This document shows, one piece after another, positions 10,840-54,901 of a DNA stretch of 64,000 bases. Location: the IMG/VR virus record IMGVR_UViG_3300049846_002130, positions 1 through 64,000 of that record; one strand, 5' to 3'. The position numbers and the translations under genes are program-made. Numbering within the stretch: the first letter of the stretch is position 1; every line of letters begins with the position of its first letter. The DNA is from a virus. The notes under the pieces were generated by a model, which worked only from the letters and a program-made list of their open reading frames with translations, searched no databases and was not told the DNA's origin.

Positions 10840-13740
10840 TCAGGTCCGGTTCAGTGACCTTGTCAGTGACGAAAGCCACTGGCTTTCTGCTGACGCCTTG
10901 CGGGTTCTGATGGTGTTGACCACTTCGGAGGTCAACTTGGCCATGCAGTCAGGGCAATCCCAGAGTGGGATTCCTTGATCGTTGGCGTCCTTGATTTCCA
11001 GTTGGTGCTGGCTGCTTTTGGACACAATCCACGTCAGCTTCTGCGTGGGGTCTGGGTCCTTGAGAGCCATGTCGACACATCGTTGGAGTCGTTGCTCCCG
11101 ATGGAGAAACTGACACTCGTAGGTGTGTTCGATTCCCAGAATCTCCATGATGGGAGAGCCTGGGTAGCACACTGCCCGGAATGCATTGTTCAGGTTGGGC
11201 CTGAAGCTTTCGCTTGTCTCAGAGGTCTCGTGCTCCCAGATTTCGACGAGAGCAGTGATGCGCTCGCTTTCCGGAAGCTGAGCAAGGAACAGCTGAAGCT
11301 CTTCTTCGAGCTTCTGCTGTGCCCCAAGTACCTGGTTTGCCCTACGCTCTTCGTTGGCGGAGAGCGATGAGAGCGCATCGTTGTACTTGCCAAGACCACA
11401 CTTGGCTCGAAGGCCTTGTTGGTACTTGGTGTGATTGACAACGATATGTGGTACTACCACGCCCTTTGCTGCCAACACAAGCCTCAACAGTGGGTTGAGG
11501 TCAATGTTGGTCTTGCTCTGGAACTGAGGCTCTTCCTCTTCCCAGAGCTTGAAGCAGTGGCGTGCAGCGATGTGCACGAGGTTCTCATGTTCGCTGACGG
11601 GTGGCAAGAACCACTCATCAACGTTCACTCGTTGACCTCGGCGTCTCCACCACAGAGGGTCCAGGGCCTTCATCTTCCCATCGTCCTGAGCTGCACAGCA
11701 GCCGGCTGCGATGAGTCGACCATCCACCCACTCTTTCAGTCTCTTCATGGGGATCTCTCCCCCTTCGAGCTGATCGGAGGTGTAGCGGATGGTGAAGTGC
11801 CACCCATCTTCACGCTGCTCCCAATTCGTTGGGTCAGCAGCCTTTTCGATGTTGGACCACTCTGGTACTCGCTTCTGACGGTCAATGCACTCCTGAATCG
11901 CGATGCTCAGCGCACGAGCACCGTTCAGGTCACCGACTGCCAGAAGCCGCGACCGCCACACGGTACACCGACCCACTGGGCCACGATGATCGTAGCGCAG
12001 GTACTCCAGGCCCTCTGGAGTATTGGTCATCAACGGACCACCATTCTTGGCAGTCAGTTCCACACCTTTTGGTTCGATGTGGAAGATGTCGTTGTCGTTC
12101 CGGTAGCTGAACAGCTCCAGAATGTCTGGGCTGTCACTGACGCCCAGAATATCTCCGTCATCGTCACCCTGCATCTTGATCGTCAAGTCTGCAGGGTTCA
12201 TGATGATTTGGAATGGAGGCAGCTCATCGTTTACCAGATGATGAGCTTTGGGCTTGATGGTCTTCATGACTACCAGACCCTGAGGCAGAATCATTGGAAA
12301 CCTGAATGCTGCCACCTGCTTGCCGGGTCGCATGCCTGCAACCACACAGTGGCCAGCAGGCACAGTGGCGTCCAGACGAGCAACGTAGCTCCTGAACTTA
12401 CCACCTCCGCCCTGTTCCGTTCTTCCCAGGGTTCTGGCGAGACGGTCCTTGACCGCCTCTGCCACTCTGGGAATGTCCATCGGGGACACTGCGTGGCCCT
12501 CGGAACGAATCACGTTCACGAAGTCCACGATGCCTTTGATGGTGGTGTCACGCCTGGCGATTTGATTCACCAGGCCATCAAGGCCCTTGGCGAACAGTTT
12601 ACCCATGGCCTTGTCGACCATGTTGCGTACGACCTCTGCCGTACGACCGTTCACCTGGATATTCTCCAGCATTTCGAAGCTGCCGGAGATCCGCCGCGGA
12701 CGGTCCCATGCCTGCAGGATGCCGACGTAGCAGCCTCCCACAGCCTTGACCCTGTTGTCGGCCCGACGCTGCTTTGCCTCGGGCTTCCAGCGGCCCTTGA
12801 TTTGCGTCCAGTCGAGTACGATGCCCTCGACCTTGTCGGACGGGAAGATCGTGCCCTTGGCGAATAGCCCACTCTCGGGCTGCAAGAGCCGGAACTGGCA
12901 GGGCACAGCTCCGTACTTGGCTACGAATGCAGCCATCTCAGGACAGGTTGGGTTGTAGATGCCCGACCCGTCTGTTTTCAAGTCCACACCCTCCGCGTCA
13001 CGCAGAGTGGTGAACGTGACATTGGCGTTCTCGATGAAGCCCTCGGGGAGCACCGGGGCATTGAGGCCATGACAGTACGCAGACATGTCGATGGCCTTCG
13101 GGAATGCCTTGAGCAACAACTTGTAGGCTGGGTGGTCCATGTTCCAGCCCAGACGCTCACCGGAGACAGCGATGTGGAGGCTGTTCAGCTCCGCAAGGCC
13201 GCCCTTGAAGGTTTCGCGCCCCTCTTCGTCCTCTCGCTTGTCGATGGTCGACAAGATGTTCATCGCTACGGCAGAGGACTGCTGACCGTGCAGAACCCCG
13301 CTGATGAGAGCAAGGAGCCCAAAGCTCCGCAGCTCTCGATCGTAGCGCCACCGACACCGCTCCTCGTTGAGTCGGTAGAAGGTGTACACTGGCTCACGGA
13401 TGTACGTGAGCCGATTTGCTGTCCGCTTCTCGAAGCGCACCAGGCGCTCTTGAAGCCTCTTGATGTCTTTGGTGGCCAAGGTCTCGTATGCCAAGGTCAC
13501 CAAGTCTTCGGCAAATACTTCGGCCAGCTCACTGAATCCCATGGACGTGAACACATCCACGAGGTCCTCGATCTTGGTCAGGGGCTTCGTTTGCACCCTG
13601 GCCACGTAGTCGCCCAGCATGTCGCCGGGCAACTCCTCCTCCGTCCCCCGAGGCTCGTCGAGAGTGATGGAGTTCAGAAACTCCAGAACCCTCCGCTCCT
13701 CGTTGCGGATCTCGAAGTTCTCAACACTGAGGTTGTTCAT
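10840..13740 (-). CDS. Single-subunit two-barrel RNA polymerase, YonO/QDE-1 (cellular RdRP)-like; probable non-virion RNAP, 966 aa
   Basis: Ordered motifs TDGSG, QFR..AKG, WTQIKG, RFP, catalytic GDDDGD (12151-12168), VG helix, QECIDRQK; start MNNLSV at 13740 after AGGAGG. Confidence 0.88.
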   Translation of the reverse strand: MNNLSVENFEIRNEERRVLEFLNSITLDEPRGTEEELPGDMLGDYVARVQTKPLTKIEDLVDVFTSMGFSELAEVFAEDLVTLAYETLATKDIKRLQERLVRFEKRTANRLTYIREPVYTFYRLNEERCRWRYDRELRSFGLLALISGVLHGQQSSAVAMNILSTIDKREDEEGRETFKGGLAELNSLHIAVSGERLGWNMDHPAYKLLLKAFPKAIDMSAYCHGLNAPVLPEGFIENANVTFTTLRDAEGVDLKTDGSGIYNPTCPEMAAFVAKYGAVPCQFRLLQPESGLFAKGTIFPSDKVEGIVLDWTQIKGRWKPEAKQRRADNRVKAVGGCYVGILQAWDRPRRISGSFEMLENIQVNGRTAEVVRNMVDKAMGKLFAKGLDGLVNQIARRDTTIKGIVDFVNVIRSEGHAVSPMDIPRVAEAVKDRLARTLGRTEQGGGGKFRSYVARLDATVPAGHCVVAGMRPGKQVAAFRFPMILPQGLVVMKTIKPKAHHLVNDELPPFQIIMNPADLTIKMQGDDDGDILGVSDSPDILELFSYRNDNDIFHIEPKGVELTAKNGGPLMTNTPEGLEYLRYDHRGPVGRCTVWRSRLLAVGDLNGARALSIAIQECIDRQKRVPEWSNIEKAADPTNWEQREDGWHFTIRYTSDQLEGGEIPMKRLKEWVDGRLIAAGCCAAQDDGKMKALDPLWWRRRGQRVNVDEWFLPPVSEHENLVHIAARHCFKLWEEEEPQFQSKTNIDLNPLLRLVLAAKGVVVPHIVVNHTKYQQGLRAKCGLGKYNDALSSLSANEERRANQVLGAQQKLEEELQLFLAQLPESERITALVEIWEHETSETSESFRPNLNNAFRAVCYPGSPIMEILGIEHTYECQFLHREQRLQRCVDMALKDPDPTQKLTWIVSKSSQHQLEIKDANDQGIPLWDCPDCMAKLTSEVVNTIRTRKASAESQWLSSLTRSLNRT

Positions 13741-13859
13741 GGACCTCCTAAAGCTTAGCATTGGCTGCGTCAGCAGCCATAAAAAAGGGAAGGCCACAAT
13801 AGGGCCTTCCGGATTCAAGACAGAACCTTGATGGTCTATCCTATCACTAACTTTCTTTC

Positions 13860-14252
13860 TTAGCCGTCGATGCCGATGGCCCACCGGAGCTTAGCCCCCT
13901 GGAGGTAAGCCCCACGGAGGTTGGCCCCCTGGAGATTGGCCCCCCAAAGGTCAGCCTCCCGAAGGTCAGCCCACCGGAGGTCAGCCCCCTGGAGGTCAGC
14001 CCCCTGGAGGTCAGCCTCCTGGAGGTAAACCCACTGGAGGTCAGCCCCCCAGAGGTCAGCCTCCCGGAGGTTAGCCCCCCGGAGGTCAGCCCACTGGAGG
14101 TCAGCCCCCCGGAGGTCAGCCCGCCGGAGGTCAGCCCTCTGGGGCACGACACTCTCTTCAACAGCATGGGCTTCGAAGCCCTGGCTTCGAAGCCAAGCTT
14201 GGTGAGGCCCGTACCAAGGGAAGCGGGCCATGAGCTCAGTGTGGTTGGTCAT
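13860..14252 (-). CDS. Pentapeptide repeat protein, paralogue 3 (130 aa)
   Basis: GGAGG RBS before MTNHTELMARFPWYGPHQAWLRSQGFEA; A(D/N)L(R/Q)x repeats. Confidence 0.92.
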   Translation of the reverse strand: MTNHTELMARFPWYGPHQAWLRSQGFEAHAVEESVVPQRADLRRADLRGADLQWADLRGANLREADLWGADLQWVYLQEADLQGADLQGADLRWADLREADLWGANLQGANLRGAYLQGAKLRWAIGIDG

Positions 14253-14316
14253 CTTGCCTCCGGAGCGCTTGCTCTGGGTCGCTCCAAAACAAAGGGGGCC
14301 GTCAGGCCCCCGCGCA

Positions 14317-14493
14317 TCAGAACTCAAACTCATCGGGAAATGTTTCTTCCACATCTCCCAAGTACACCAGACAAAGAATATTCTCTGTCAGATATGCAAT
14401 GCGGAGGGCTTCCGCATTGTCGGCCATGAGTCCCAGCTCGAAGGCAGCATCTGCTACCTCGAACCAGAACTCCACCTCATCATGAAGAGCCAT
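14317..14493 (-). CDS. Small very acidic protein (58 aa)
   Basis: AAGGAGG RBS before MALHDEVE; 15 D/E vs 1 R. Confidence 0.7.
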   Translation of the reverse strand: MALHDEVEFWFEVADAAFELGLMADNAEALRIAYLTENILCLVYLGDVEETFPDEFEF

Positions 14494-14684
14494 GGTTCCT
14501 CCTTTGGCTTTAAAAGGGTGGGAGCCTTCTGTGCTCAAGTCTTGAGTCTCTGCGGAGTGAGCCTGCCTGAAGGTGGTTTGCGGAGTCGTGGTATCCCTTG
14601 GGTCTTTACCACTTAAGTCTTCCAATCACAAATTAAAGGTTCAATAAAAGAAGGGCAGTTTATACTCTTGCCCAGGAGTCTATG

Positions 14685-15065
14685 CTAGTTGTTGTGCACC
14701 ACGAGCTTGATGACCCACGGAAGCAGGTTAAGCTCGTTGCCATCGATGGTGAAGGAGTTGTAGCAGGACTCCTCCAGCTTCTGCTTGCACCTCTCCAGCA
14801 GGAACTCGTAGGTATTCCGATCGTCGTAGCGGTACGGCCAGATGGCGTACATCGGATTGCTGTGCCGAGGCTTCCACTCCTCGTAGGTCAGGATGTGACG
14901 GTAGTACGTCGTGACCTTGATGGTCTCGTCCTCGATCTCGATCTGAACGTCCTGTCCAGGTCCACTCCTGCTACGATCCTTCAGGTAGCCATGGAAGGTG
15001 GTGGTCCCGCTGGTCTCCCAGATGAAGGCCCCCACCACGAACTCCACCCACTGCGCGTACGTCAT
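14685..15065 (-). CDS. Hypothetical protein
   Basis: AAGGAG RBS before MTYAQW. Confidence 0.75.
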   Translation of the reverse strand: MTYAQWVEFVVGAFIWETSGTTTFHGYLKDRSRSGPGQDVQIEIEDETIKVTTYYRHILTYEEWKPRHSNPMYAIWPYRYDDRNTYEFLLERCKQKLEESCYNSFTIDGNELNLLPWVIKLVVHNN

Positions 15066-15135
15066 TGTCTCTCCTTGTTGGTCACCATGACCATAAAAGA
15101 AGGGGTAGTTTATCCACATACCCCAGGTGGTTGGA

Positions 15136-15387
15136 CTAGAACGGGATGTCGTCGTCGTTCAGGCTGTCCACGAACATACGGATTTCCTCGGCCTCCTGTG
15201 CGGTCATCGGCTGTTCGTTCCTGCTCTTCCACTCCTGGTCCACACACCAGTCCTCGTACAGGCGCTGGTAGTGCTGAGCCTTCTGGTGAAGATCCAGATG
15301 CTGCTCCATCGGAACACTCTTGTCGAACGAAGCGTCGAACATCTGCCACCAGAAGTCAGCCAGGTCACGCGGATTCAGCTCACGCAT
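15136..15387 (-). CDS. Small helical protein with SSB-like C-terminal DDDIPF
   Basis: 83 aa ending LNDDDIPF*; GGGAG RBS. Confidence 0.75.
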   Translation of the reverse strand: MRELNPRDLADFWWQMFDASFDKSVPMEQHLDLHQKAQHYQRLYEDWCVDQEWKSRNEQPMTAQEAEEIRMFVDSLNDDDIPF

Positions 15388-15471
15388 TGTAGCTCCCTAT
15401 AGTGCTGTGTGCACCATAAAAGAAAGGGGAATACCTAGGTATTGGACCTAGTGCTATTCCCTACCAGCTAA

Positions 15472-16011
15472 TCAGTCGATACGACGCAGGTGCAGGTGGT
15501 CGTTCCGGAAGAACGCCTCCCACTTGATGGACCTGCGGCCCAAGGCCACGCTCCTGAGCTTGGCCAAGAACTCCTGACACTCCCCCCTATGGGAGATGTA
15601 GAAGCTCTTGTCGAACCACACGGCGAACTCCTCACGTTCCCGGGTCTGAGTGTGGTTGTTGCACTTGAGGTGCTCCCAGAGGGGATTGATGGGCTTGATG
15701 CCCAGCATGTCCAGCAACATGTTCACGTCGCAGTCGTACTCGGGTTCGACCTCCTCACCCGGGAGCTTGGGCATGCCCGACTCCAGGTCCGTGGTCTCGT
15801 TGGTGGACTTGGGCTTCTGGTAGAACGCCAGGGCCTCCTTGCACTGCTCCAGATCCTGGGTGATGCACTCCACCTTCTCCTGGAGCTTGGGCAGGAACGC
15901 CATGATGTCGTGCTCCATCTTCTCCTTGGTCACCCCCTGGTAGTCGATGGCCTTGCTCTCCACGATGGACGCAAGGACGTTGATGATCGCCAGGGTGTCG
16001 TTCTTGGTCAT
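15472..16011 (-). CDS. Hypothetical protein
   Basis: AAGGAG RBS, 179 aa, coiled-coil-like N-half. Confidence 0.75.
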   Translation of the reverse strand: MTKNDTLAIINVLASIVESKAIDYQGVTKEKMEHDIMAFLPKLQEKVECITQDLEQCKEALAFYQKPKSTNETTDLESGMPKLPGEEVEPEYDCDVNMLLDMLGIKPINPLWEHLKCNNHTQTREREEFAVWFDKSFYISHRGECQEFLAKLRSVALGRRSIKWEAFFRNDHLHLRRID

Positions 16012-16124
16012 GCTCTCTCCTTAGACCTATCGGGTCTTTGTTTTGGCTCTCACCTTATTGTGAGGCCATAAAAAGGAAAGAGAAAGAAAAGGGTAGGGGT
16101 TGGACCTACCAATTTCTTCCGGCT

Positions 16125-16340
16125 TTAGCGGTATCCCATGTAGTAGCAGATCCGCACCATGGCCTCCTCTGGGCCGACGAGCCGGAGGAGCACCCTCCAT
16201 GCTTCATCGGCCTCCCTCTCGGCCTCGGCGTATTCAGCGATCCACTCGGGATCGTCGCACGATACCGAGGGCCACGGGGCCCTGTTCTGGTCCGCCACGA
16301 GACGGGCCAAACGCGAAACCTCACTGCCGATGGTCTTCAT
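16125..16340 (-). CDS. Hypothetical protein
   Basis: AAGGAG RBS. Confidence 0.7.
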   Translation of the reverse strand: MKTIGSEVSRLARLVADQNRAPWPSVSCDDPEWIAEYAEAEREADEAWRVLLRLVGPEEAMVRICYYMGYR

Positions 16341-16401
16341 GTTCTCTCCTTTATGGCAGGTAGTTCTGCCGTAAAAGAAAAAGGGGCCAGGCCCCCGTCT
16401 C

Positions 16402-16542
16402 TCAGGTTTTGATCATGTTGTCCATGATCATCAACAACAGCCCATAGAGGGCTGCCAGTGCGCTCAGGAACAACGTTCCCATGTCGGGTGCATTGGTGAT
16501 GACGGCCAGTGAGACGATCGTACAAATGAACCCGATACGCAT
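16402..16542 (-). CDS. Small membrane protein (46 aa)
   Basis: GGAGG RBS; MRIGFICTIVSLAVITNAP...LYGLLLMIMDNMIKT*. Confidence 0.6.
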   Translation of the reverse strand: MRIGFICTIVSLAVITNAPDMGTLFLSALAALYGLLLMIMDNMIKT

Positions 16543-16642
16543 GTTGCCTCCAATCTTTGGTCTTGCTTCGTTGCCAGACCATAAAAGAGAGAAAAGAAAA
16601 GGGGACTACTCAGGTATTGGACCTGATGCTAATCCCTTCGCA

Positions 16643-16894
16643 CTAGTTCTCGTCCGGCAGCTCGATCTCGCCCGGGAACTCCTGGGCCCAGGCGGCCCAG
16701 CTCGTGTACGTCTCGTTGCCTTCCTCGTCCACCTCCGGATACCCGGTGAGGATAAGCAGGAATCCTCCCTCCCGTCCGATGATCGGGCCCGCCGGGTACT
16801 GCTCCTCTCCGATCAACACCTCCCCATCGCCCTCGGGCAGCCGGCTCGCGATCCGAGGGGAGAATGCCGACGGGGCGATGATCATCTTGAACAT
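16643..16894 (-). CDS. Acidic hypothetical protein
   Basis: AAGGAG RBS; E/D-rich C-half. Confidence 0.7.
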   Translation of the reverse strand: MFKMIIAPSAFSPRIASRLPEGDGEVLIGEEQYPAGPIIGREGGFLLILTGYPEVDEEGNETYTSWAAWAQEFPGEIELPDEN

Positions 16895-16979
16895 GTCTTC
16901 TCCTTAATGCCTTAGGGAAGTTATCTAAGGCCATAAAAGAAAGGGGTAGTTATACTCCACCCCCAGGAGTCAGACTTGA

Positions 16980-17435
16980 CTAGCTTTCGAGGCTAGCCAA
17001 GTCTCCCTGCCAGAAGAACAAGCTGGCGAGCCCGTCCTCCTCCACCTCCCGCTCGTTGTTCAGCTCATCGCAGAGCTGGTCGAGTGCGAGGGTTTCCTCG
17101 ACGATCTGGGCTGCCTTATCCATCTCGGACCAGAAGACCACCATGGCCCCATGGAGAGCGTTGATGCTAAACGCATGCTCCTCGCACACCTCCACTTCGA
17201 AGGCCGGGTCAATCTGGTCGAACCAGATCTCGGTCATGAGTTCCTCGCCCCAGAACACCATGTCCTCGGGGATCTCGAATACGTGGACCAGGTCAGCCTG
17301 CTCCTCCTCGTGGTACACGATCTGGACGCTCTCGGCACAGACCGGGTGGAGAGCGATGATGTCCTCGAAGGTCACGATGGCCCCGACGACGATGACGACG
17401 AGGAGGAACAACGACACCAGGGTGATGGCGAGCAT
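16980..17435 (-). CDS. Membrane-anchored extremely acidic protein (151 aa)
   Basis: GGAG RBS before MLAITL; N-terminal TM helix; about 33 D/E vs 2 K/R. Confidence 0.7.
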   Translation of the reverse strand: MLAITLVSLFLLVVIVVGAIVTFEDIIALHPVCAESVQIVYHEEEQADLVHVFEIPEDMVFWGEELMTEIWFDQIDPAFEVEVCEEHAFSINALHGAMVVFWSEMDKAAQIVEETLALDQLCDELNNEREVEEDGLASLFFWQGDLASLES

Positions 17436-17469
17436 GTTAGCTCCAAGCCTACTAGGTGTAGGCTGTTGT

Positions 17470-18149
17470 TGGTTGGTAGACTTAGAAACTAAGTCTGGTA
17501 GGTGGACTGGGACCACCACGGCCTAAGGTTCTGTGATTGTCCTTTTAGACCTTAAGGTCTGCCCATGGATATCGGGTTTGGCTAGTGGGTTGGTCTTACT
17601 GTCATGCCACGAGTATAGCCAGACTCGTTTGCACCAGATCCAGGTGCTTGGTTGACTTACTCAGTAAGTCAGAGGGTGTGTGTTATCCGCGTACACCAAG
17701 CGGGATGGTATGTTGTACTACAAGCACATGCTGGTAGTAGTGTAGGTCCCCACCTAGGTACCGTTCCCTATAGGGTGATGTCCCCTATGGTAGGTAGTAC
17801 CATGCCTAGGCTACTTGTCGTAGTGCCAACGCTAGGTGCCCCTAGAAGTCCTATGTCTCTTTACCGCATAGGAGATCGGTTGTTTCCATGGCGCATATAC
17901 CTAGTACGTATAGTGTACCCATCGTGGGCACCTATACGGGCTACTAGGTAGGCTACCTGGGGGATGTACCCCTTGCCTTCGTGTGGTGGACTCCACACTA
18001 GTATGCTGCCCAGCATACACCCGTATACACCCGCAGGCGTATACTTCTGCTACACGGTTAATACTTGCTTAAGCAAGTATTAACCTACTACATATCCAGT
18101 GATTGCTCTTCCCAGGTATGTAGGGACATGGTCATATCGCTATGACCAT
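17470..18149 (-). ncRNA. Candidate structured ncRNA or long 5' leader (tandem hairpin array)
   Basis: More than 15 consecutive stem-loops, no RBS-supported ORF, starts at a cassette copy; two stems pair via G-U only on the - strand. Confidence 0.5.
18056..18085. repeat. Perfect 30-bp palindrome
   Basis: GGTTAATACTTGCTT|AAGCAAGTATTAACC. Confidence 0.95.
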
Positions 18150-18178
18150 AAAAGAAAAGGGGGCCGAAGCCCCGATCA

Positions 18179-18277
18179 TCAGGCGATGCGCCCGATGATC
18201 AACCCAATACCGAATCCCACCATCGTCATGGCAATGATGGCAATGCAAGAAGCACACATAAGGATGATGATGCCCAT
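18179..18277 (-). CDS. 32-aa hydrophobic peptide
   Basis: GGAGG RBS directly after cassette; MGIIILMCASCIAIIAMTMVGFGIGLIIGRIA*. Confidence 0.55.
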   Translation of the reverse strand: MGIIILMCASCIAIIAMTMVGFGIGLIIGRIA

Positions 18278-18338
18278 GTTAACCTCCGTAAAAGAAAAGG
18301 GGGCTATATCTCCTATGGATATAGCCCACTAGTAGGTG

Positions 18339-18488: not shown

Positions 18489-18745
18489 GGTACCTCCAAG
18501 ACATGTAGATGCTGAATGCATCATACAGAGGTCATAAAAAGAAAGAATAAAATAAAAAGAGGGGTCAATACTTTAGGCCGGTGGGCTCCGAACTCCGGAT
18601 TGGATAACCATGATATATCTACCTGGTCCACAAAATTATATATATAATATATTACATAATCCATAGCCACATATTGCTTATATCTATACCAACTACACCG
18701 ATGCTCCAGCTTAATCTGCACTATCTTCTACTTGCACTTGCACTA

Positions 18746-18754
18746 TGTTATACT
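18746..18754 (+). promoter_or_regulatory. Possible extended -10 promoter (TGnTATACT) before the first rightward gene
   Basis: TGTTATACT followed by TTTTACGGAG and ATG at 18770. Confidence 0.4.
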
Positions 18755-18769
18755 TTTTACGGAGACTGC

Positions 18770-19045
18770 ATGACCAAACCCCAGTTACTACGCTATAGCA
18801 TGGCACTCAATCAACATCGCAATGCACTTGCCACCACCTTGAACTCTCTTAGTTCTGTACCAGAGTTACAGTTCTCTGTGTTGGTGAAGTCGAGCCCAAA
18901 AGGACTTGACTGTACCTACGCCAACAAACTACATGCATTTCACTTACTTGATCCTCATAAAGAATTGCCAATATTACGAAAACTTGTTGAACAAACAACC
19001 TCCATGATAGAAGCACTAGAGCGAGAAGTAAATGAATCAGCTTGA
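18770..19045 (+). CDS. Hypothetical protein
   Basis: GGAG RBS before MTKPQL. Confidence 0.6.
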   Translation: MTKPQLLRYSMALNQHRNALATTLNSLSSVPELQFSVLVKSSPKGLDCTYANKLHAFHLLDPHKELPILRKLVEQTTSMIEALEREVNESA

Positions 19046-42992: not shown

Positions 42993-43013
42993 GTCTCCGA
43001 GTAGCAGTTCTAA

Positions 43014-43050: not shown

Positions 43051-43066
43051 TATGGGTGAGAATTAA

Positions 43067-43939: not shown

Positions 43940-43943
43940 ATTA

Positions 43944-45187: not shown

Positions 45188-45188
45188 G

Positions 45189-45885: not shown

Positions 45886-48800
45886 ATGTTCGAACCATAT
45901 GGCTCGATGGTTTGGAGTAATCAGCCTACTCAGCCCTCTGAAAATCGTCCTAATCGGTATCTAAATTTAGGCTTAGCATCTGTTGCTATGGGTGGTGCTT
46001 TTGCTTATGGCTTACACTCACGTCCTGACGATACTCGGCCGATAGATGCTCTTATTAGTGTAGCTAGGAATGTAGGCAATCTTACACCTTATCAGATTGG
46101 GAATACTTTTCGTGTTCCTGAGTTCTTAAGTCCCTTTGCTTCTCCTAAGTATCACAGACTTACTGCAAAGGGTGGGCAGTATACTCATACTTGGGATGCT
46201 GCTAGTCTATCTAATTCTAGTACCTATAGTTACCTTAAAGAATTAACTGGACTATCTGATAGCCAATTACATTCTTTTGGTATAGGTTCTAGATCATCTA
46301 AAGCTAATTTAGTATTCAAGAAAGATGCTACTGCTGTTCATGGACAGCTATATAGTGTCTTAAACGGTAAGGAGAGCCTGCTTCGTTCCAATGTTATGCT
46401 TATGCAGTATACTGGTGAGCGGAATGAAGTTCTAACATCACTAGGTAAGGCTCCTGAGTTTACTCCTGTTAATAAAGCGATCAAGTCTGTTTTTGCTGCT
46501 ATGGATATGTGGCGGTATAAGGACTTTAAAGAAGGCAATGTCTTGCTTTCTGGGAAGAACAGACCGTCGTTAATACCTGTGCCTGGTATTGAAGCCAGTT
46601 ATTCTGGCACAACATATCTTAGGTCTATTGGTGCTTTTCAAATGGAGAGGTTTAACCATCTACTGGGTAATATTGGTGGTGAACTATTTGGCTCTTCACT
46701 TGATAAAGTTTTTAAGCGGATACTGGGTACGGGAGTTGGAGTGGCTTCTGGGCCAGCTTCGAGTATGTTCTTTCGATTTGGTGGTAAGGCTGCTCTAGCT
46801 GGAGCAATAGGTATTGGAGCAGTAGCAGAGACAGATTGGATTAGGCGTAGGTTTGGAACTCCGGGACATATGATTGCAAGCACAGCAATTGCTGGTGGGC
46901 TTGGAGTGTTAGCTACTAGGGCTGGGTTTAAAGGTAAGACTGGGGCATTAATCGCTGGGGGAGCTTTTATTGGCCAAATGCTTTTACCTGGGTTTAATAA
47001 AGGTGTCGTGCCAGGACTTGCTACGTCGTATACTAATCTTCAGCTAGCAAGAGCCAGTAGCTTAAATCCCTTTAATTATTATCGTAGAACGGTAGAGGGT
47101 TTCTTACCCGGTATTAGTGGATTTGGTGTAGCAGCTGGTATTGGTATTGCTATGGCGACAGCTCCACATCTAAAGATTCCTGGTACAGGCAGACGAGTGC
47201 CTCAAATTCTTTTAGATCAACTTGGTCGCACTACTCTTGGGTTTAAACCAAAGACTCTCAGTGGTCTTTCTGTTGAAGTCCCCAAAACAGTACGTGATAT
47301 TTTTTGGGACAAAATGATGTCTCATGGTCTTCAAGAACTAAATGGTCCTAAGTTTGCAAAGATATATCAGCAGTATGCTGCTAATGGCCACTACTCTACC
47401 ATGAGTATGAGAAATAGGTTAATGAGAGAATTCTATACTCAACGACCAGTTGAAGAAACGAGTCGAGCTATGGAGCATCTCTTTGCTGCTGCAGAAACAG
47501 AGTATGACGAGTTAGCAAAAAGAAATCCGATTAATCACCATATGGTTGATGAGCTAACAGCTATTGCTACTAGATATTCTGGTAAAGGTGACTTTATATC
47601 TCGTGCCACAATGCAGGCAGAGGGTTTGGTTAGCCAGCTTAAGCATAGCTTTTTTGGAGCTGTACTTCACGAAGAAAGTACAGCTAAAGCCATGGCTTCC
47701 CTTGGGTTCAAATCTCCTCTTGGCTCTTTCGGATTATTGTTTGCAGCTGGAGCAACTGCCTTTGGTATAGCAAGTGGTGGTCTCTTGGGTTCAATGCGAA
47801 CAAAAGAAGAGCTTGAAGATATTTATTCTGGCAGACAACTTGTTGAAGTTAAGAAGGGTAGATTTTGGGAAGCGGGTGGTACCCCGTGGGAAGGTGGACT
47901 AACTTCTCAGTTAAGGCCTCATTGGTATCCAATAATGATGTCTCGGGCTCAACAAGCCGGAACATGGGGATCTGATGAAGACAATCTAGATCCTATTAGC
48001 AAGTGGGCTCTTTCTAATTTTACATATGAGCTAGAAAGAAGAAACTATTATGATCGACCCTATCCCATTAGTGGGGCAGCTTTTGCTAATGTTCCTATCA
48101 TTGGAGGACTATTAAGTTCTACGATTGGACGATTAATTAAGCCTCCAAAGATTATGCATGCTAATGAGTGGGCTCGTATGGGGGCTGGGGGTGCAGAGTA
48201 TGCTTCTTTGTATGAGGGTTGGAAGCGTGAACCATCATATGCAATGGGCGCATCTATGCCTGGTATACCTATAAGTCCATATAGTGCAGCACATGCTTTG
48301 AGTCAAGTTAACTATCAGGCTCAAGAGTTAGCAGGTTTGACTGGGTGGGTTGGCTCTCTAATTCAGGAGGGTTTAACCGGTAAACCATATTGGCATGGGG
48401 ACTCACCTGTCTTGGCAGATGCTTCGATACTCTCTAGTGCCAGAAGGACATTATGGGATGCACAGTTGGGCGGTATGGGTCCTTTAGGTGAAATAATTCG
48501 ACGGGTTCTTCCAAGCTATCCAAAAGATGTTGAGAGAACCAATCCCCTACTAAACACGATGCCCAGCTGGCTACCAGATCAATTTGCATATGGTGACCCA
48601 TATGCGCAGATCCCATATGGAGAGGCTGTTTTACCAGGACCTGGTTATGCAGCTTTACATCCAGAACTTAGAGGCGTAAGCCCAGAAGATTATCCCTTGT
48701 TACACAGATATAATATTCTGTCGCAGGTATCACCTTTAAGTAAAGAATTTAGAAGTACAAAAGATAAGGTCTATCGAGCACGAGCTGCTGGTTTATTAAC

Positions 48801-49905
48801 TTCTGAACAAGAAGCATATGTAGATAGATTGGATTATCTAACTAATAAGCGGTGGGCTGGATATGTTGATCAAGAGTTTGATCCAAATGCTATTCGTCTT
48901 CCTGGAAGTTCTTTTATTGCGGAGGGCAAGAGAGAAATCTTTAAGATGGCTAGGAAGGGTTTGGGGCCATTAGAATATCTAACACCATTCCGTCCACTAC
49001 AAAAACTTCTTGGCGATAGAGATCCAATTGAACAGTATGAATATGAAAGACTATATGGTAGCTCTGTTGCTTTCTGGGACAAACCATTTAGAGATTTCTT
49101 AAGACCAGCTATGTACTCCTTAGCTAACTATATGGGTTTTAGTGGTAAGCCCATATGGAGGCATGATGCTGATGCGACTAATGAACTATTTGATAAGGCA
49201 GAGTTTTACAAATGGATGTCTCTTGCAGAGCAGGCAGCAGCTCAAGGAGATACTCGAGATAAAATTCGATATGAGTATTTAGCAAGTAATACTCGTATGG
49301 GGGTAAACCCATACGGCAACCCATTAAGTATATACTGGTCTCTTCCTAATGAAGACCGAACTTATTTTAGTGCTTTTGCAACAGCAACTGGTAAGGACCG
49401 AGAACGTATTTTACAGATGGTTCCGGCAGACCAGGTACACCTTTATAAAGCTATGTGGTCTAGAGAAGATGCTGAAGATCCTAGTTTATGGACTGGGCTT
49501 AATACATCTCCCGACCAACAATACTTGTTTTCACAATACAATCAGTTAGATCGGAGTCAGTTGCCCGCCGATGATTGGATAGGCTATAACCAAGATGTCG
49601 ATATGCGGGACATCAAAGTTAGGTATGTTAATCAACAAGGTAAGGAGCTGCGTGACTTTGGTTTATGGGAGCAGGAACTTAAAAAAGCATATTCTCAACC
49701 ATACCTAGAAGGTTCTGAAACAGCAATTAGTTCTACGGAAATCAAAAGAGGCTGGTTAATGCATAGTATGAATAAGGTTTTTGATACTAGCGATATAAGC
49801 TTAATTAGTGGTAGTTCTCGCTATGGCACGATGGATTTAAATTATAATGATGATCGCCAAGTAGATATCGATAGGGCATTATTAGGGCAAATGAATGGCT
49901 ACTGA
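45886..49905 (+). CDS. Tape-measure-like large virion protein (1339 aa)
   Basis: Position after chaperones; Gly/Ala-rich hydrophobic blocks; helical C-terminus. Confidence 0.55.
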   Translation: MFEPYGSMVWSNQPTQPSENRPNRYLNLGLASVAMGGAFAYGLHSRPDDTRPIDALISVARNVGNLTPYQIGNTFRVPEFLSPFASPKYHRLTAKGGQYTHTWDAASLSNSSTYSYLKELTGLSDSQLHSFGIGSRSSKANLVFKKDATAVHGQLYSVLNGKESLLRSNVMLMQYTGERNEVLTSLGKAPEFTPVNKAIKSVFAAMDMWRYKDFKEGNVLLSGKNRPSLIPVPGIEASYSGTTYLRSIGAFQMERFNHLLGNIGGELFGSSLDKVFKRILGTGVGVASGPASSMFFRFGGKAALAGAIGIGAVAETDWIRRRFGTPGHMIASTAIAGGLGVLATRAGFKGKTGALIAGGAFIGQMLLPGFNKGVVPGLATSYTNLQLARASSLNPFNYYRRTVEGFLPGISGFGVAAGIGIAMATAPHLKIPGTGRRVPQILLDQLGRTTLGFKPKTLSGLSVEVPKTVRDIFWDKMMSHGLQELNGPKFAKIYQQYAANGHYSTMSMRNRLMREFYTQRPVEETSRAMEHLFAAAETEYDELAKRNPINHHMVDELTAIATRYSGKGDFISRATMQAEGLVSQLKHSFFGAVLHEESTAKAMASLGFKSPLGSFGLLFAAGATAFGIASGGLLGSMRTKEELEDIYSGRQLVEVKKGRFWEAGGTPWEGGLTSQLRPHWYPIMMSRAQQAGTWGSDEDNLDPISKWALSNFTYELERRNYYDRPYPISGAAFANVPIIGGLLSSTIGRLIKPPKIMHANEWARMGAGGAEYASLYEGWKREPSYAMGASMPGIPISPYSAAHALSQVNYQAQELAGLTGWVGSLIQEGLTGKPYWHGDSPVLADASILSSARRTLWDAQLGGMGPLGEIIRRVLPSYPKDVERTNPLLNTMPSWLPDQFAYGDPYAQIPYGEAVLPGPGYAALHPELRGVSPEDYPLLHRYNILSQVSPLSKEFRSTKDKVYRARAAGLLTSEQEAYVDRLDYLTNKRWAGYVDQEFDPNAIRLPGSSFIAEGKREIFKMARKGLGPLEYLTPFRPLQKLLGDRDPIEQYEYERLYGSSVAFWDKPFRDFLRPAMYSLANYMGFSGKPIWRHDADATNELFDKAEFYKWMSLAEQAAAQGDTRDKIRYEYLASNTRMGVNPYGNPLSIYWSLPNEDRTYFSAFATATGKDRERILQMVPADQVHLYKAMWSREDAEDPSLWTGLNTSPDQQYLFSQYNQLDRSQLPADDWIGYNQDVDMRDIKVRYVNQQGKELRDFGLWEQELKKAYSQPYLEGSETAISSTEIKRGWLMHSMNKVFDTSDISLISGSSRYGTMDLNYNDDRQVDIDRALLGQMNGY

Positions 49906-52900
49906 ATCTTTAGAGAACCAGGGTAATCCATACGGAAATATTATTAAAACAGCTATTGGTTTAGCTCCCTTAGCTGTAGGAGGCTATATTGCTTTCAATA
50001 AAATTAAAGGTAATACAGCTCTAAACCCAGCTATACCTTTGGGGGTTGGAGGTTCCGGTAATCTTATTTCGGTTGCATCTGAACTTGGTAAAGAAATTAA
50101 AGTTAATGTTGGGAAATCTAGAGCTGCAGATCTATCTCGTATAGATAAAGTTTCTAAAGAAATAATGAAAGCTGATGGACTAAAAAAGTTGTTCTCCACA
50201 GTAGAAGAACAGCGAGTTCTTGTCCAAAGTCTACTAGATACACTTTCAGATCCCACTAGTGGTGTAAGCCAAGATGTGCTTCTCTCTTACAGAGAGAAGC
50301 TTTTAAACTTAGCTACCAATGCACCAGATTCTGACGATATGAGGGAGTCCATAAAGGCTGTTGTTAAGGCTATTGATACCCAAGGGACTGATAATGCTAA
50401 GGTTCGGTTAGCTAAGAATCTTAGAGAATATAAGAAATTAGGACCAAGCTTAGTCCCACCGGGACAGGCATTAACTCCTGAGCGAGGCTATATTGATCTT
50501 AACTTTTCTGGTCTTAAAGGTCATGTGTCTGATTCGAATACATACAAAGCTATTAAGAGAAGATATAAGGCATTAGAGAATGCCTTAGGTGGTGGAGGTA
50601 GGCAACGTATTCAACTAGTTGGTAAAGAGTTTGATGGAGCCTTTTCTGTATACGCTCGTGTTTCAACAGGTAGTAGGTTTACTGCAACAGTACCCCTTCA
50701 TGTTGGTACTAGTACTTCAGGGGTTAGAGGGTTGTTCTTAAATGAAGGTATGACCACTGGCTATGCAGCACCTAGACAGTTTTTAAGCGCACAAAAACTT
50801 CATAGTCTCGGACCTGGGTTAAAGGCCGGTGCCGGGACTGCTGAAGTTGCTATGGAAGATGTGTTCTTAAATGAATTCGTTTCTCGCTTAAAAAATGTTA
50901 ATGGCAGGACTATGCTTGAAAATACAAATGCATATGGGGCTTGGCAGCGACAGTTTTTAACTGTTATGCCAAGAGGGGCATATTCTGCTGATCGTTCAGG
51001 CCATTTACTAGGTACCATAGCTCAGGCTCAAAATTATGCAACTGTTGTTGGTTGGCAAGGTCTTGGTAAAGAAGCTCAATATGACATTATGACTAGATTA
51101 GGTGCTGCTGCTGGTTATGAGGCCAATGCACCTGGCTACCAGATGATTGTTCGGGGTATTGATGATGAAACTATTGGCCGAATGGGTATGGCTAGTGGGA
51201 GCGCATTGCATTCTTTAATGCCATCTCAGTCAGCTGATAGATTTTACTTTCCAGTAGAATCTCGTATTGAGCAGATGATTGGTCGGACAGCACAGTTTGT
51301 AGACGATAAGCCTATGAGAATGGGAAGAGGAGGAGTTTTTTCTGCTGGAGCTATGCATGCTGGTGGATTAAGTGCCACCAATATGGTCGGTCAAAATATC
51401 GAATGGGCGAATAATTTGACAGGAGCAACTAATAAGGCTGTCGTTATGGTCTTTAACAAAGACAATCCAATCTATAAAACTATGGAGGGTAGTGGTGCTG
51501 CACTCTATGCTGGTAGAGATAAAGTTGTAGACTTTATCTCTAAACCAGTCCTAGACCCCACGGCGACAAAACAAATGAGTAGCAAACTATTTCAGCATCT
51601 AACTACTACTTATAAGCCAGGTGAAGAGTTTACTATCTCTAGGGAAATGCTAAAGGAGCATGGAGCCTTTCTTGGATTTAGTGGTAATGGCCCCCAGCAT
51701 CTACGGCTAGATCCCCGAACCGATAGTATGCAGGCTATCTATAATGTCACTGAAACAAATGGTAAAAGAAATATTAACTTTATGATTAAGCATCAGCGAG
51801 ATATGGAGACATGGAAAGCATTTTCTCTTTCCCATAAAGGTATGTTACAGCAGATTGGAGGGCGGCGATTTATTCAGCACCTTGAAGATCTTGGTTTGTC
51901 AAAAGCCCGTCGTCAGTCTCTTGGTATACCAACAAGACATACTGTTATAGCTACACCAGATATGCTCAAGAAGGGAGCTGGATTATTAGACCTTCAAATG
52001 TCTGGTGCTTATGCTATGGTAACTGGTGATACTAATTATTTGTCTAGTATTCGTAAAGCTGGTATGGCCTTTGGTCAAGGTCTAGACGATTCTCGATTAG
52101 CTAGAACATTTGGTGGAGTAACAAGTCTACTCTCTAAGCAATTTCAAGCAGGAAAAGTTTCTGCTGAAGATATTGGTTTGGTGCTTTCTGGGGCTTGGTT
52201 TATGGGGGACAAGCATAAACGTTTTGGACTGACTCAAGATCTTCAGAAAGGTTTGATAGAGAAGCATTTTGGTAATGATTCTGGACAGGTGCTAGCTGCG
52301 ATACAGAAAGGTGTTGGTCTGTCACCAACTTCTATGGTACAGGGCATGGGGCCTGGAGACTATGGATTGGGAAGAGGTTCAATAGAGCCAAGATTTCTTC
52401 AAATGCTTCAGCAACAGTTACAGAATATGGGTATGACATCTGTACAGTCAGCTAAAGTATTAGCTGATATATATGGTCGAAAGCTTGGCGGAGCCAATGC
52501 TATAAAAGCTTCACAGGGAATGATGAAGTTCTTAGAGAGTGTTGGTGGACATCAAGGCCTAGCAACTGGTATCGAGCAACTTGTTAAAGGTGTTCCTGAA
52601 TATACACTTGCCGATCTAGGAAAAATAACCTCACAGGATTTTGCTAACTTCTTATCTGAACATAAGAATGGCTTTACTCTTAATCTAACTTCTGGTGTTG
52701 ATAGTGTCGCAAAGTCTGCAATTGCGGCAGCTGCTACCGATGTACTTGGACAGGGAAATGTTTATTTTCCTGGCTTGGAAATGACCGAAGCAATGAGAGA
52801 TGTCTTTATCAAAAATTCTGGTGAGATGGATACTGTTGTTCATGGCGAGTGGATGCGGAACTCAGAGAATTTCTTAAAGTCTATTCATGGTATTAGTACC

Positions 52901-54901
52901 CAGACTGTTGGAGCTTCTGATGCAGCTCGTGGAGCGATTGAGGGATTTGTTAAGCGAGGCAGAAAGATGGCGGCTGATACTATCCACAATATCCATCGTG
53001 GGAAGATTCGTGGCATGCAGGCAATGATAGCCGCTCCATTTGCTCTTGAATCTAATGTTGGTTTTGCTAAATCTTCACAGTTTAAGTTTGCTCGCAATAT
53101 TATGAGAAAGACTCGTGGCCAAGCTGTATTCTTTGACTCTACAGCTTTTATTAGTCAGCTTGCTGACTACATGGGCACCAAAGATGGTAATGTCGGTCAT
53201 GCTGCCCGCCAGGCTGAAATGTTTTTCTTGAGCCCAGAACTAGCTATGTCTAGTGGAAAGATGGGCAAGGTTAAGGGATTGGCACAAATTGGTCAGCGCC
53301 ACCCGACAGCATCTCTTGGTAATATATTTGTTACTCAAGTTTATCGAGATCCTAGAGAATTGGGAAAGAGTAACGATTATCTTAATACCTTTCTTGAGAC
53401 AGAGGTTGGTAAAGGATGGGCGGCCAAAAAGATTCGTCGATTCAAAGATCTAGAACAGCTAAGTGCTGGTAAGCGTCGGGCCTTTTTCACTGACTTTGTT
53501 AGAGAAATTGATTCGTTTGCTCCAGAGGGTGGGGGCATTGCATATCTTCCTGTAGCTAAAGCAAAAGTAAATCTTATTGGTGCCAATGAGCCATCTATGA
53601 ATGTTGATATAGGATTTTCTGCTGCAGCCATTGGTGACTTCGACGGAGATACATTTATGTTCACCCCTGTAAATAGTGATACAGGTAAGTTACTTCTTGG
53701 GCGAATGGGCAAGAAGTCTATGGACGAATGGGCTGCTAGTAATGCACTGTACAAGATTAAATCAGAACTCTTTACGAAGGAAGCCAAGGCAGGGTTAGAT
53801 AGACAAGCAGGGTCTGTAGTAGATATTGATGAGGCTATCAAGCAGGGGCTACTAAAAGAACAGGCAGCTAAGGCTGCTGTTGGAAGTCTAGATACTAGAC
53901 TTAATAAACTTAGGTTATCCTTGGTTGATATGCACCTTTCAGGACAAGCTAGCAGAGATCAGGTTTCTGAAGCATTGAGCTTACTAAAGGTCTTACAAGA
54001 GCACACAACTATTAAGGGTAAAAAGCTTCCTGTTTACAAACCATTTGCAGAAAGTTTAACAGCTGCCGTAGATAGAGTATTCGATTCTGGTGACTGGGGT
54101 TCGTTTGAACGAGTGCTCAATGAAGATATTTTTAAAGGAAGCCAACTACTTGAAGGCGGAGTTACTATAGATAGTGTAAGTTCTGATGGGTTTGGCTTTT
54201 TCGGTCGCGGAGTTCAAAAGCAACAAGTAAGTCTTGCGCAGACAGTGGCTACGATGAAGCAAGCTGTTAGTCGATCGCAGGTAACTGGTATAGCTAATGC
54301 CCCATCAGCAAACTGGATGGTAAAAGGTTTAGCTTCACAAGACCCAGTAGAAGCTGAGCGAATGATGACGCTAATGACTAGTGGGCAGCTTCAAGCTACA
54401 GCTACTTTGATGTCAGCTACGGAGGATGCTGGCCAGATAACAAAGACAGCTCTTGCTCGGGGCCAGTCTATATTACAAAATATAGGCCATTATATTTCTG
54501 GTTTAGACAATAAGACTACGGGTATTATTGCTGGAGGTATATTGGCGGCAACTGCCACGATGGCAATGATTGGTAATAGAGGGTATAGTAGTCAAGCTCT
54601 TACAATGCCTGGAGAGATTGCTGGTAACGATATAGATAAACAAATTTCTAGCGGACAGCTTTTGGGGCCGCCGCGAAAGAATTATCCTACAGCAACCCCA
54701 CAACAAATTGGAACCACCTATGTACAAGGTAGAAGTACATATTCGGTTCGTGGTATTTTACATGGAATTGGTGACGTAGCTAACGCAACTAACTATCTAA
54801 GTACTATTAGTGGTGGGAATATGAGAGGCTCTGTAAGTATCAATGATAATCGTAGACCCATCAGTGGCAGTTATGTAGATCGTTTCTTTGGAGTATACTA
54901 G
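49895..54901 (+). CDS. Candidate virion-packaged two-barrel RNA polymerase (1668 aa)
   Basis: AAIGDFDGD (53636-53650) preceded by QRHPT and AYLP; K......HKG upstream; VG helix and QEHTTIKGK downstream; C-terminal hydrophobic helix. Confidence 0.78.
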   Translation: MATESLENQGNPYGNIIKTAIGLAPLAVGGYIAFNKIKGNTALNPAIPLGVGGSGNLISVASELGKEIKVNVGKSRAADLSRIDKVSKEIMKADGLKKLFSTVEEQRVLVQSLLDTLSDPTSGVSQDVLLSYREKLLNLATNAPDSDDMRESIKAVVKAIDTQGTDNAKVRLAKNLREYKKLGPSLVPPGQALTPERGYIDLNFSGLKGHVSDSNTYKAIKRRYKALENALGGGGRQRIQLVGKEFDGAFSVYARVSTGSRFTATVPLHVGTSTSGVRGLFLNEGMTTGYAAPRQFLSAQKLHSLGPGLKAGAGTAEVAMEDVFLNEFVSRLKNVNGRTMLENTNAYGAWQRQFLTVMPRGAYSADRSGHLLGTIAQAQNYATVVGWQGLGKEAQYDIMTRLGAAAGYEANAPGYQMIVRGIDDETIGRMGMASGSALHSLMPSQSADRFYFPVESRIEQMIGRTAQFVDDKPMRMGRGGVFSAGAMHAGGLSATNMVGQNIEWANNLTGATNKAVVMVFNKDNPIYKTMEGSGAALYAGRDKVVDFISKPVLDPTATKQMSSKLFQHLTTTYKPGEEFTISREMLKEHGAFLGFSGNGPQHLRLDPRTDSMQAIYNVTETNGKRNINFMIKHQRDMETWKAFSLSHKGMLQQIGGRRFIQHLEDLGLSKARRQSLGIPTRHTVIATPDMLKKGAGLLDLQMSGAYAMVTGDTNYLSSIRKAGMAFGQGLDDSRLARTFGGVTSLLSKQFQAGKVSAEDIGLVLSGAWFMGDKHKRFGLTQDLQKGLIEKHFGNDSGQVLAAIQKGVGLSPTSMVQGMGPGDYGLGRGSIEPRFLQMLQQQLQNMGMTSVQSAKVLADIYGRKLGGANAIKASQGMMKFLESVGGHQGLATGIEQLVKGVPEYTLADLGKITSQDFANFLSEHKNGFTLNLTSGVDSVAKSAIAAAATDVLGQGNVYFPGLEMTEAMRDVFIKNSGEMDTVVHGEWMRNSENFLKSIHGISTQTVGASDAARGAIEGFVKRGRKMAADTIHNIHRGKIRGMQAMIAAPFALESNVGFAKSSQFKFARNIMRKTRGQAVFFDSTAFISQLADYMGTKDGNVGHAARQAEMFFLSPELAMSSGKMGKVKGLAQIGQRHPTASLGNIFVTQVYRDPRELGKSNDYLNTFLETEVGKGWAAKKIRRFKDLEQLSAGKRRAFFTDFVREIDSFAPEGGGIAYLPVAKAKVNLIGANEPSMNVDIGFSAAAIGDFDGDTFMFTPVNSDTGKLLLGRMGKKSMDEWAASNALYKIKSELFTKEAKAGLDRQAGSVVDIDEAIKQGLLKEQAAKAAVGSLDTRLNKLRLSLVDMHLSGQASRDQVSEALSLLKVLQEHTTIKGKKLPVYKPFAESLTAAVDRVFDSGDWGSFERVLNEDIFKGSQLLEGGVTIDSVSSDGFGFFGRGVQKQQVSLAQTVATMKQAVSRSQVTGIANAPSANWMVKGLASQDPVEAERMMTLMTSGQLQATATLMSATEDAGQITKTALARGQSILQNIGHYISGLDNKTTGIIAGGILAATATMAMIGNRGYSSQALTMPGEIAGNDIDKQISSGQLLGPPRKNYPTATPQQIGTTYVQGRSTYSVRGILHGIGDVANATNYLSTISGGNMRGSVSINDNRRPISGSYVDRFFGVY

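Follow-up and report, generated by a model that had tools for sequence, protein, structure and literature searches.

RNA polymerases (RNAPs) carried by a phage let the virus start its programme without the host enzyme. Known examples are the T7-like enzyme of N4, the multisubunit enzymes of phiKZ and AR9, gp66 of a crAss-like phage, and the tape-measure fusion of P23-45. In P23-45 the tape-measure-fused virion RNAP (vRNAP) transcribes the pre-early genes, including that of the non-virion RNAP (nvRNAP), via a special motif (Chaban et al. 2024, PMC10770324). The contractile-tailed Bacillus phage 0305phi8-36 encodes gp99, an RdRP-family DNA-directed RNAP (PMC2147016) that has been called YonO-like (Iyer et al. 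2021, PMC7824862). We analysed the first 64 kb (the window) of a 183,528-bp IMG/VR virus record that is rated complete (IMGVR_UViG_3300049846_002130). This window encodes a 966-amino-acid (aa) protein in a leftward block, here the early RNAP, and a 1668-aa protein among the tail genes, here the tail RNAP. On balance we favour a reading in which the phage makes two two-barrel RNAPs that act in sequence, the one from the tail slot being delivered in the virion.

The polymerase core of the tail protein

The tail RNAP gene and its parts are as follows, with coordinates of the window and residue numbers of the 1668-aa protein; model quality is given as the predicted local distance difference test (pLDDT) and predicted template-modelling (pTM) score.

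49895-54901, plus strand: 1668-aa candidate virion RNAP in the tape-measure slot, placed there by an order of genes that is shared with five metagenomic loci, 0305phi8-36 and Acinetobacter phage ME3
51527-54334, plus strand: folded polymerase core (residues 545-1480), AlphaFold2 model with pLDDT 88.4 and pTM 0.85
53636-53650, plus strand: DFDGD, predicted catalytic loop (D1248, D1250, D1252), the three Asp invariant in 42 sequences
53297-53305, plus strand: RHP (R1135-H-P1137), counterpart of the beta' R-x-P, with P1137 invariant and R1135 at least 90% conserved, within model residues 494-720
51815-51838, plus strand: K641...K648-G (HKG), candidate basic pair of a beta-like barrel, both Lys invariant, placed by the model in the final two of a block of six strands
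49940-49996, plus strand: N-terminal hydrophobic helix (residues 16-34), Kyte-Doolittle window 1.64
54518-54574, plus strand: C-terminal hydrophobic helix (residues 1542-1560), Kyte-Doolittle window 1.63
54692-54898, plus strand: C-terminal module of ~65 aa, ending IND-x-RRP...DR..G-x-Y, conserved across the family

The tail RNAP has no match in Pfam, in PHROG or among PDB sequences; the PDB sequence matches obtained with single proteins and with the core profile (HisRS, myosin light chain) were spurious. When the core model was compared by VIA-align with 48,161 solved chains, the top 16 were without exception largest subunits of RNAPs or single-chain two-barrel RNAPs (Z 9.3-7.0, 234-387 residues aligned). 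Among these are Pol II Rpb1 (Z 9.3), Pol I (9.2), RDR2 (9.1), QDE-1 (9.1), archaeal A' (8.8), the vaccinia enzyme (8.4), Pol IV (8.3), Mycobacterium tuberculosis beta' (7.9), the phiKZ nvRNAP (7.9), P74-26 gp62 (7.7) and the AR9 enzyme (7.0), with gp96 of P23-45 (6.1) and phi14:2 gp66 (5.4) below the top 16. Ranked after the RNAPs come isolated domains of the double-psi beta-barrel (DPBB) type (Z 6.0-6.6), which align to model residues 494-720, the segment that contains RHP and DFDGD. In the ESM Atlas, seven of 10 rows carry Rpb1 Pfam domains and one more has PF05183 (RdRP) on 23% of its members. The top rows all belong to one family and the matched barrel has an invariant Asp triad, which makes the assignment strong: by its model, the tail RNAP is predicted to be a homolog of the single-chain two-barrel RNAPs with intact catalytic motifs.

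The original prediction placed two barrels around DFDGD. The beta'-type barrel stands, since model residues 494-720 align to DPBB domains and the DxDxD loop is preceded by R-x-P in both the alignment and the model. The beta-type barrel is suggested by the invariant K641 and K648 and by alignment ranges, the alignments of the core to RDR2, QDE-1, gp62, gp96 and gp66 starting at model residues 1-94, upstream of the two lysines.

A profile of residues 545-1480, run against 1.84 billion proteins, recovered at least 164 representative clusters at 50% identity, most of them 1650-1830 aa long. In an alignment of 42 sequences (21-67% identity) the invariant positions are G594, K641, K648, R833, G846, G1036, K1037, F1085, P1137, D1248, D1250, D1252 and E1369. 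Distant relatives reach 2400-3265 aa, with the polymerase match at varying positions; when seven relatives of greater length (2045-3265 aa) were searched with Pfam for a fused tape measure or peptidase, a single HhH motif (P0120) was the only match.

The tape-measure slot

The window holds a myovirus structural module that runs rightward from 19 kb: terminase, portal, major head protein, sheath, tube and tube paralogs. The presence of sheath and tube genes implies a contractile tail. Three cultured phages are nearest by terminase and sheath (24-30% identity), namely Moorella phage MTATph1, Bacillus phage 0305phi8-36 and Acinetobacter phage ME3; 0305phi8-36 is one of the three nearest by terminase and the sole cultured match by sheath. 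A megablast search with the tail region gave no match, nor did tblastn of both RNAPs against 50,697 phage records. The genes that define the slot are listed here.

40031-42992, plus strand: tail sheath (771 aa) and tail tube (209 aa), PHROG tail sheath 3e-31, tblastn match to the 0305phi8-36 sheath
44669-45869, plus strand: two short genes (172 and 226 aa) placed like the two-gene tail chaperonin, by synteny with gp143/gp144 only, with no family match
45886-49905, plus strand: 1339-aa gp145 homolog, its last 11 nt shared with the RNAP gene (collinear blastp segments, E 2e-18, 2e-17 and 6e-14)
54901-63261, plus strand: 2786-aa homolog of the baseplate hub gp147 (blastp E 2e-16 and 4e-13, PHROG matches)

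The tail module of 0305phi8-36 runs sheath gp139, tube gp140, chaperonins gp143/gp144, gp145, gp146 and hub gp147. Both gp145 and gp146 are annotated as virion proteins by mass spectrometry, and gp146 is the hypothetical tape measure. The order in the window is sheath, tube, chaperone-position genes, gp145 homolog, RNAP and gp147 hub homolog, so that the RNAP, with a gp145 homolog on one side and a gp147 homolog on the other, takes the place of gp146, the tape-measure slot. The same order occurs in five metagenomic loci, 0305phi8-36 and ME3; every one of the nine loci in which a flanking gene was read agrees with it. The tail RNAP had originally been described as lying beside the tape measure, between a tape-measure-like gene and a hub gene. 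The hub is indeed there, downstream, but neither flanking gene is a tape measure: the upstream one is the gp145 homolog, and the RNAP itself sits in the gp146 slot. A search of the genome for another tape-measure candidate found none, and the tail RNAP has no Pfam or PHROG tape-measure match and no peptidase domain. The M23 peptidase domain of the region lies in the 2786-aa hub homolog (residues 430-520, PF01551 E 8.5e-16), which also has six hydrophobic segments in its C-terminal half.

The RNAP gene overlaps both neighbours, which suggests coupled translation. This bears on the possibility that the 1668-aa protein is never packaged, being instead a late RNAP co-transcribed with the tail genes for late transcription while a separate protein measures the tail. 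A globular core (pTM 0.85) is awkward for a tail lumen, and the virion location is a deduction from the slot, both of which would suit such an enzyme. Yet its start and stop codons overlap those of homologs of two virion proteins, the occupant of this slot is a virion protein in 0305phi8-36, the terminal hydrophobic helices and C-terminal module resemble those of virion-protein neighbours, the order is constant across loci, and no second tape-measure candidate is present. We therefore consider an unpackaged late enzyme improbable.

The likeness among neighbours concerns the protein ends. A similar C-terminal motif (N-x-D-D/N-R, then G-x-Y) was seen in the 1339-aa protein (49696-49902), the RNAP (54692-54898), gp145 and gp146, and a hydrophobic N-terminal helix of the GG(Y/A)xAF type is common to the RNAP, the 1339-aa protein and gp145. 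The comparison of C-terminal modules of the 1339-aa and 1668-aa families by hhalign gave a probability of 4.8% (E 0.008), so a shared C-terminal module is weakly suggested by eye and not established statistically. The shared terminal motifs may be a tail-loading signal. In this lineage the last 60 residues are the only conserved part of the slot protein (Hardies et al. 2007, PMC2147016), which the weak likeness of the tail RNAP C-terminus to gp146 fits. Local hmmsearch of gp142-gp147 and ME3_35-37 gave marginal matches only, and the core profile found nothing in the genomes of 0305phi8-36, MTATph1 and ME3. A language-model search with residues 40-545 of the tail RNAP returned tape-measure clusters at scores of 0.79-0.81, below the level that counts.

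Some further features of the module and record may be mentioned. Two tube paralogs follow the tube gene (42363-44669, plus strand) and match the same PHROG, an arrangement paralleled by gp140 and gp141 in 0305phi8-36. Immediately upstream of the terminase gene is one for a 994-aa protein (20094-23078, plus strand) that contains a staphylococcal-nuclease domain (Pfam E 2.5e-12). The ends of the record share an exact 127-bp repeat, labelled 'direct terminal repeat' in the record; it looks like an assembly overlap or artefact rather than a biological terminal repeat, and the zero point of the record is for that reason arbitrary.

The early RNA polymerase and its hairpin cassettes

Leftward of the structural module lie the second RNAP gene and the array of cassettes that leads to it.

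10840-13740, minus strand: early (non-virion type) single-chain two-barrel RNAP, 966 aa, by AlphaFold2 model, Foldseek and profile match to 0305phi8-36 gp99
12151-12165, minus strand: DDDGD metal-binding loop, with G532, D533, D535, G536 and D537 invariant (973-aa numbering)
12853-12897, minus strand: QFR...FAKG, first-barrel segment with basic R291/K302; Q289, R291, G298, F300, K302 and G303 invariant
13777-18327, minus strand: array of nine cassettes, one per leftward gene, the last preceding the early RNAP gene

The likely start of the early RNAP is the ATG at 13740, behind AGGAGG; alternatives are the ATG at 13761 (the database gene call, 973 aa) and the GTG at 13884, from which the frame is open. 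Its AlphaFold2 model (pLDDT 84.9, pTM 0.73) matches QDE-1 by Foldseek at E 1e-13, with a template-modelling (TM) score of 0.48-0.50 over ~1000 columns, followed by P23-45 gp64 and P74-26 gp62 (~1e-11), RDR2 (2e-10), P23-45 gp96 (8e-8) and phi14:2 gp66 (7e-6). All 28 PDB matches at E <= 1e-3 are two-barrel RNAPs, and GDDDGD aligns by fold to the catalytic regions of QDE-1, gp64 and RDR2. The motifs DGSG, QFR..AKG, RFP and GDDDGD are invariant or nearly so among nine homologs (29-60% identity). PF05183, the Pfam RdRP/YonO-like family, matched none of the 10 family members at E <= 0.1, and Pfam and PHROG searches with the early RNAP itself yielded no meaningful match.

Searched against the 0305phi8-36 genome, the early-RNAP profile had a single match, gp99 (E 3e-4 per genome, 1.4e-6 as a single protein), and it found nothing in MTATph1 and ME3. 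The gp99 alignment covers 67 residues (FRxP...IMNP...DxDGD) and pairs DTDGD of gp99 with DDDGD, the loop lying at residue 573 there and 576 here. Both genes point leftward and lie just left of the structural module. The gp99 match at the same loop position, the same orientation and the QDE-1 fold make the early RNAP a divergent addition to a known RNAP type; model and profile support its being a two-barrel RNAP, a remote homolog of gp99 that is YonO/QDE-1-like, the likeness to YonO having been proposed originally. Its capacity for RNA synthesis is predicted from intact catalytic motifs.

Most of what the original prediction said of the two proteins themselves thus held. Both open reading frames exist, with every motif that was quoted, and since the motifs are conserved in homologs of both families (29-60% and 21-67% identity) they are not due to chance. 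The 'VG' helix followed by QE..K, reported for both enzymes, corresponds to conserved V596/G597 and Q623/D627/K630 in the early family and to G786 (core numbering, residue 1330) and E1369/K1374/K1376 in the tail family. Homology to single-chain two-barrel RNAPs was borne out by Foldseek for the early enzyme and VIA-align for the tail enzyme. The claim that the two are unrelated also agrees with our comparison: hhalign of the two families gave a probability of 0.1%, no profile likeness, which supports two RNAPs unrelated in sequence and without sign of being paralogs.

Either protein, or both, could conceivably be a catalytically dead polymerase relic with a structural role. The cultured relative ME3_36 has a variant loop, DHDQD, and catalysis in the present phage is a prediction, both in keeping with this idea. 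The Asp triad and basic residues are nonetheless the most conserved positions in both families, the pattern expected under selection for catalysis, and we regard dead relics as highly improbable.

The two RNAPs tend to occur together. Of five other IMG/VR contigs that encode a homolog of the early RNAP, four have the tail RNAP as well, among them the two with a completeness of at least 99%, and the contig without it is a fragment rated 33% complete. The leftward block, from ~18.3 to ~6 kb, has 52-60% GC as against 32-47% in the rest of the genome, and the difference has the same direction in four other phages with both RNAPs (53-57% vs 47-48%). It is possible that this GC-rich early block reflects a codon usage like that of the host, in genes read while phage tRNAs are still absent.

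Each cassette is made up of a GC hairpin and its T tract, the motif YTTTTAYGG, a second hairpin that starts from ATGG/ACGG, a Shine-Dalgarno sequence and the start codon. Minus-strand copies number nine in 4.5 kb (13.8-18.3 kb), compared with four in the remaining 179 kb. Cassettes with the same hairpin layout are present in 3-4 copies in the 3 kb upstream of early-RNAP homologs that are 26-30% identical, where ~0.05 would be expected, and three further phages have one copy upstream of the early-RNAP homolog. Terminator-like hairpins are enriched in the early block (20 vs 7.3 expected), and sigma-70-like sites are not (3 vs 4.7 expected).

These cassettes bear on a different account of the tail protein, in which it is a tail-lumen or tape-measure protein whose core has no promoter-specific role in early transcription; reading of the early genes would fall to the host RNAP, with the cassettes being mainly intrinsic terminators with 5' stabilising hairpins. 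The core might then pull DNA in by non-specific transcription, make primers or be RNA-dependent. Such an account would accommodate the tape-measure slot, the weak likeness to gp146 over the last ~60 residues (the conserved part according to PMC2147016), the tape-measure families returned by language-model search of the N-terminal part (a lead only), the terminator-like look of the cassettes, and the rank of QDE-1 and RDR2, as high as that of DNA-dependent enzymes. It has more difficulty with the strictly conserved ATGG/ACGG core and the second hairpin, which are dispensable for termination yet kept across phages with RNAPs 26-30% identical, with the lack of sigma-70-like enrichment before the early genes, and with a pairing with a second RNAP that mirrors the P23-45 cascade. 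We hold it to be unlikely, though less so than an unpackaged enzyme.

Several other features of the leftward region were noted. An 11-mer enrichment search for a second promoter type yielded only pentapeptide-repeat genes. There are three such paralogous genes (A-D-L-x-G type), at 13860-14354 (minus strand), 1-1040 (minus strand) and ~177600-177960 of the genome, one directly upstream of the early RNAP gene and one across the record ends; they account for the GC-rich first 1.2 kb and for most repeated 11-mers. An AT-rich intergenic stretch of ~230 bp (18520-18770) separates the leftward early genes from the rightward genes and may be a divergent control region or lie near a physical genome end. 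A plus-strand copy of the motif, TTTTTACGG, occurs at 18754, ahead of the first rightward gene (ATG at 18771). The GC-rich leftward block also contains, on the opposite strand, an HNH endonuclease gene (8094-8588, plus strand; PHROG E 7e-31).

A proposed cascade and its relation to known systems

Under the favoured reading of two RNAPs acting in sequence, we infer the virion location, the injection, the enzyme that reads the cassettes and the order of events. The 1668-aa RNAP would be made with the tail, from the tape-measure slot, and carried in the tail, probably held there by its terminal hydrophobic helices and conserved C-terminal module. At infection it would enter or span the host envelope, virion delivery probably serving to inject the phage's own enzyme to start transcription. 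It would then transcribe the GC-rich leftward block of single-gene, cassette-headed units from 18.3 to 10.8 kb, the last of which would give the 966-aa QDE-1/YonO-like RNAP, and this enzyme would take over later phage transcription. The cascade is proposed by analogy with the P23-45 layout of vRNAP, special motif and pre-early nvRNAP gene. The experimentally shown case of an injected RNAP in tape-measure position is, to our knowledge, a single and very different Thermus phage.

A number of points weigh against this reading. A Foldseek search of the PDB with the tail core gave nothing at E <= 1e-3 (best E 0.06; the weak list is mostly beta' chains), and for a model of 936 residues a Z of ~9 is only moderate. 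The beta-like barrel, placed by alignment ranges and invariant lysines, is less secure than the beta' barrel, and the family is known from sequence and predicted structure. The C-terminal 80 residues of the tail RNAP match the gp146 C-terminus weakly (hmmsearch E 0.026), with otherwise no detectable homology; gp146 lacks a DxDxD and is not matched by the profile of the RNAP core, so equivalence of slot is no proof of the same location. The folded 936-residue core would exceed the tail-tube lumen, a difficulty for both its place and its state of carriage. The first half of each cassette has the shape of an ordinary intrinsic terminator, so the cassettes may be terminators for any polymerase.

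A more specific scenario is put forward tentatively, as a possibility that we doubt more than we believe. The RNAP may have taken over the tape-measure slot in a large 0305phi8-36-like contractile lineage, as a lumen component anchored in the host membrane by its terminal helices and transcribing the entering DNA from hairpin-type cassette promoters. Transcription would then be coupled to genome entry, and being read ahead of any phage tRNAs would be the reason why the block that enters first stays GC-rich, with a codon usage like the host's.

If the tail RNAP is what it appears to be, its family of at least 164 clusters, which lacks Pfam and PHROG annotation, would extend tail-borne RNAPs to contractile-tailed phages, paired there with a second, unrelated RNAP. 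It would also add a very divergent branch to the tree of two-barrel polymerases, with the cassette as a candidate promoter. We found no paper describing the tail RNAP family or the pairing in a contractile-tailed phage, consistent with the novelty first claimed for it.

The known systems resemble this phage in different respects. The early enzyme is like the SPbeta YonO/QDE-1/RDR2 clade in being a single chain with GDxDGD whose best solved matches are QDE-1 and RDR2; the link runs through the QDE-1/RDR2 fold and gp99, and PF05183 hits none of the 10 members. Like phi14:2 gp66 (PDB 6VR4), a virion-delivered single-chain two-barrel RNAP, the tail RNAP would travel with the particle, and gp66 weakly matches both proteins (E 7e-6; Z 5.4). 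That phage is of podovirus type, gp66 is a multi-domain protein of far greater size (solved chain of 2166 residues), and the likeness is well below that to other RNAPs.

Among cultured phages, ME3 (vB_AbaM_ME3) may offer a handle on the family through gene ME3_36, a 1603-aa protein annotated as hypothetical that occupies the same slot, with a gp145 homolog and the hub as its neighbours. It has R-E-P and, 43 residues later, DHDQD at residue 1217, compared with 1248 in the tail RNAP; the loop is a variant one and the protein has no sequence-profile match to the tail RNAP. In BFVD, the model of a fragment from an ME3 protein, probably ME3_36 to judge by its length, matches the core with E 1.4e-6; a Microcystis phage MaMV-DC protein and a 'minor tail protein' match at ~5e-6. 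ME3_309 (798 aa, 6454-8850 of the ME3 sequence analysed, minus strand) was considered as an early RNAP on its position and a weak BFVD match to the tail RNAP core (E 0.01), and rejected for having no DxDxD and no profile match. Its gene is close to the right end of the genome and is followed by a 2OG-Fe(II) oxygenase gene, and the early-RNAP homolog at locus L008 also precedes such a gene.

With 0305phi8-36 the phage shares the tail gene order, including the gp145 and gp147 homologs, and a gp99-type RNAP leftward of the structural module. Since gp146 lacks a DxDxD and a profile match to the RNAP core, 0305phi8-36 appears to have the early enzyme only.

The closest parallel for the pair is P23-45, which likewise has two single-chain two-barrel RNAPs in one phage, gp96 and gp64 (PDB 8H2M/8H2N, 8F72). 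One is in tape-measure position with DFDGD, hydrophobic segments and an M23 peptidase adjacent; the second is among the first-transcribed genes behind a phage-specific motif, and gp64 is among the best early-RNAP matches. P23-45 differs in being a siphovirus, whereas the phage here is contractile-tailed. Its RNAP is the N-terminal part of a 5002-aa tape measure that also carries the peptidase, whereas here the RNAP is a separate 1668-aa gene product with the core mid-protein, and the M23 domain belongs to the hub protein next to it. The tail RNAP is closer to Rpb1-type enzymes and RDR2/QDE-1 (Z ~9) than to gp96 (Z 6.1), and gp96 and gp64 are paralogs, unlike the two RNAPs here, which give no sign of paralogy. 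The scheme is a variant of the P23-45 arrangement, with a contractile tail, a separate slot gene and an unrelated second RNAP.

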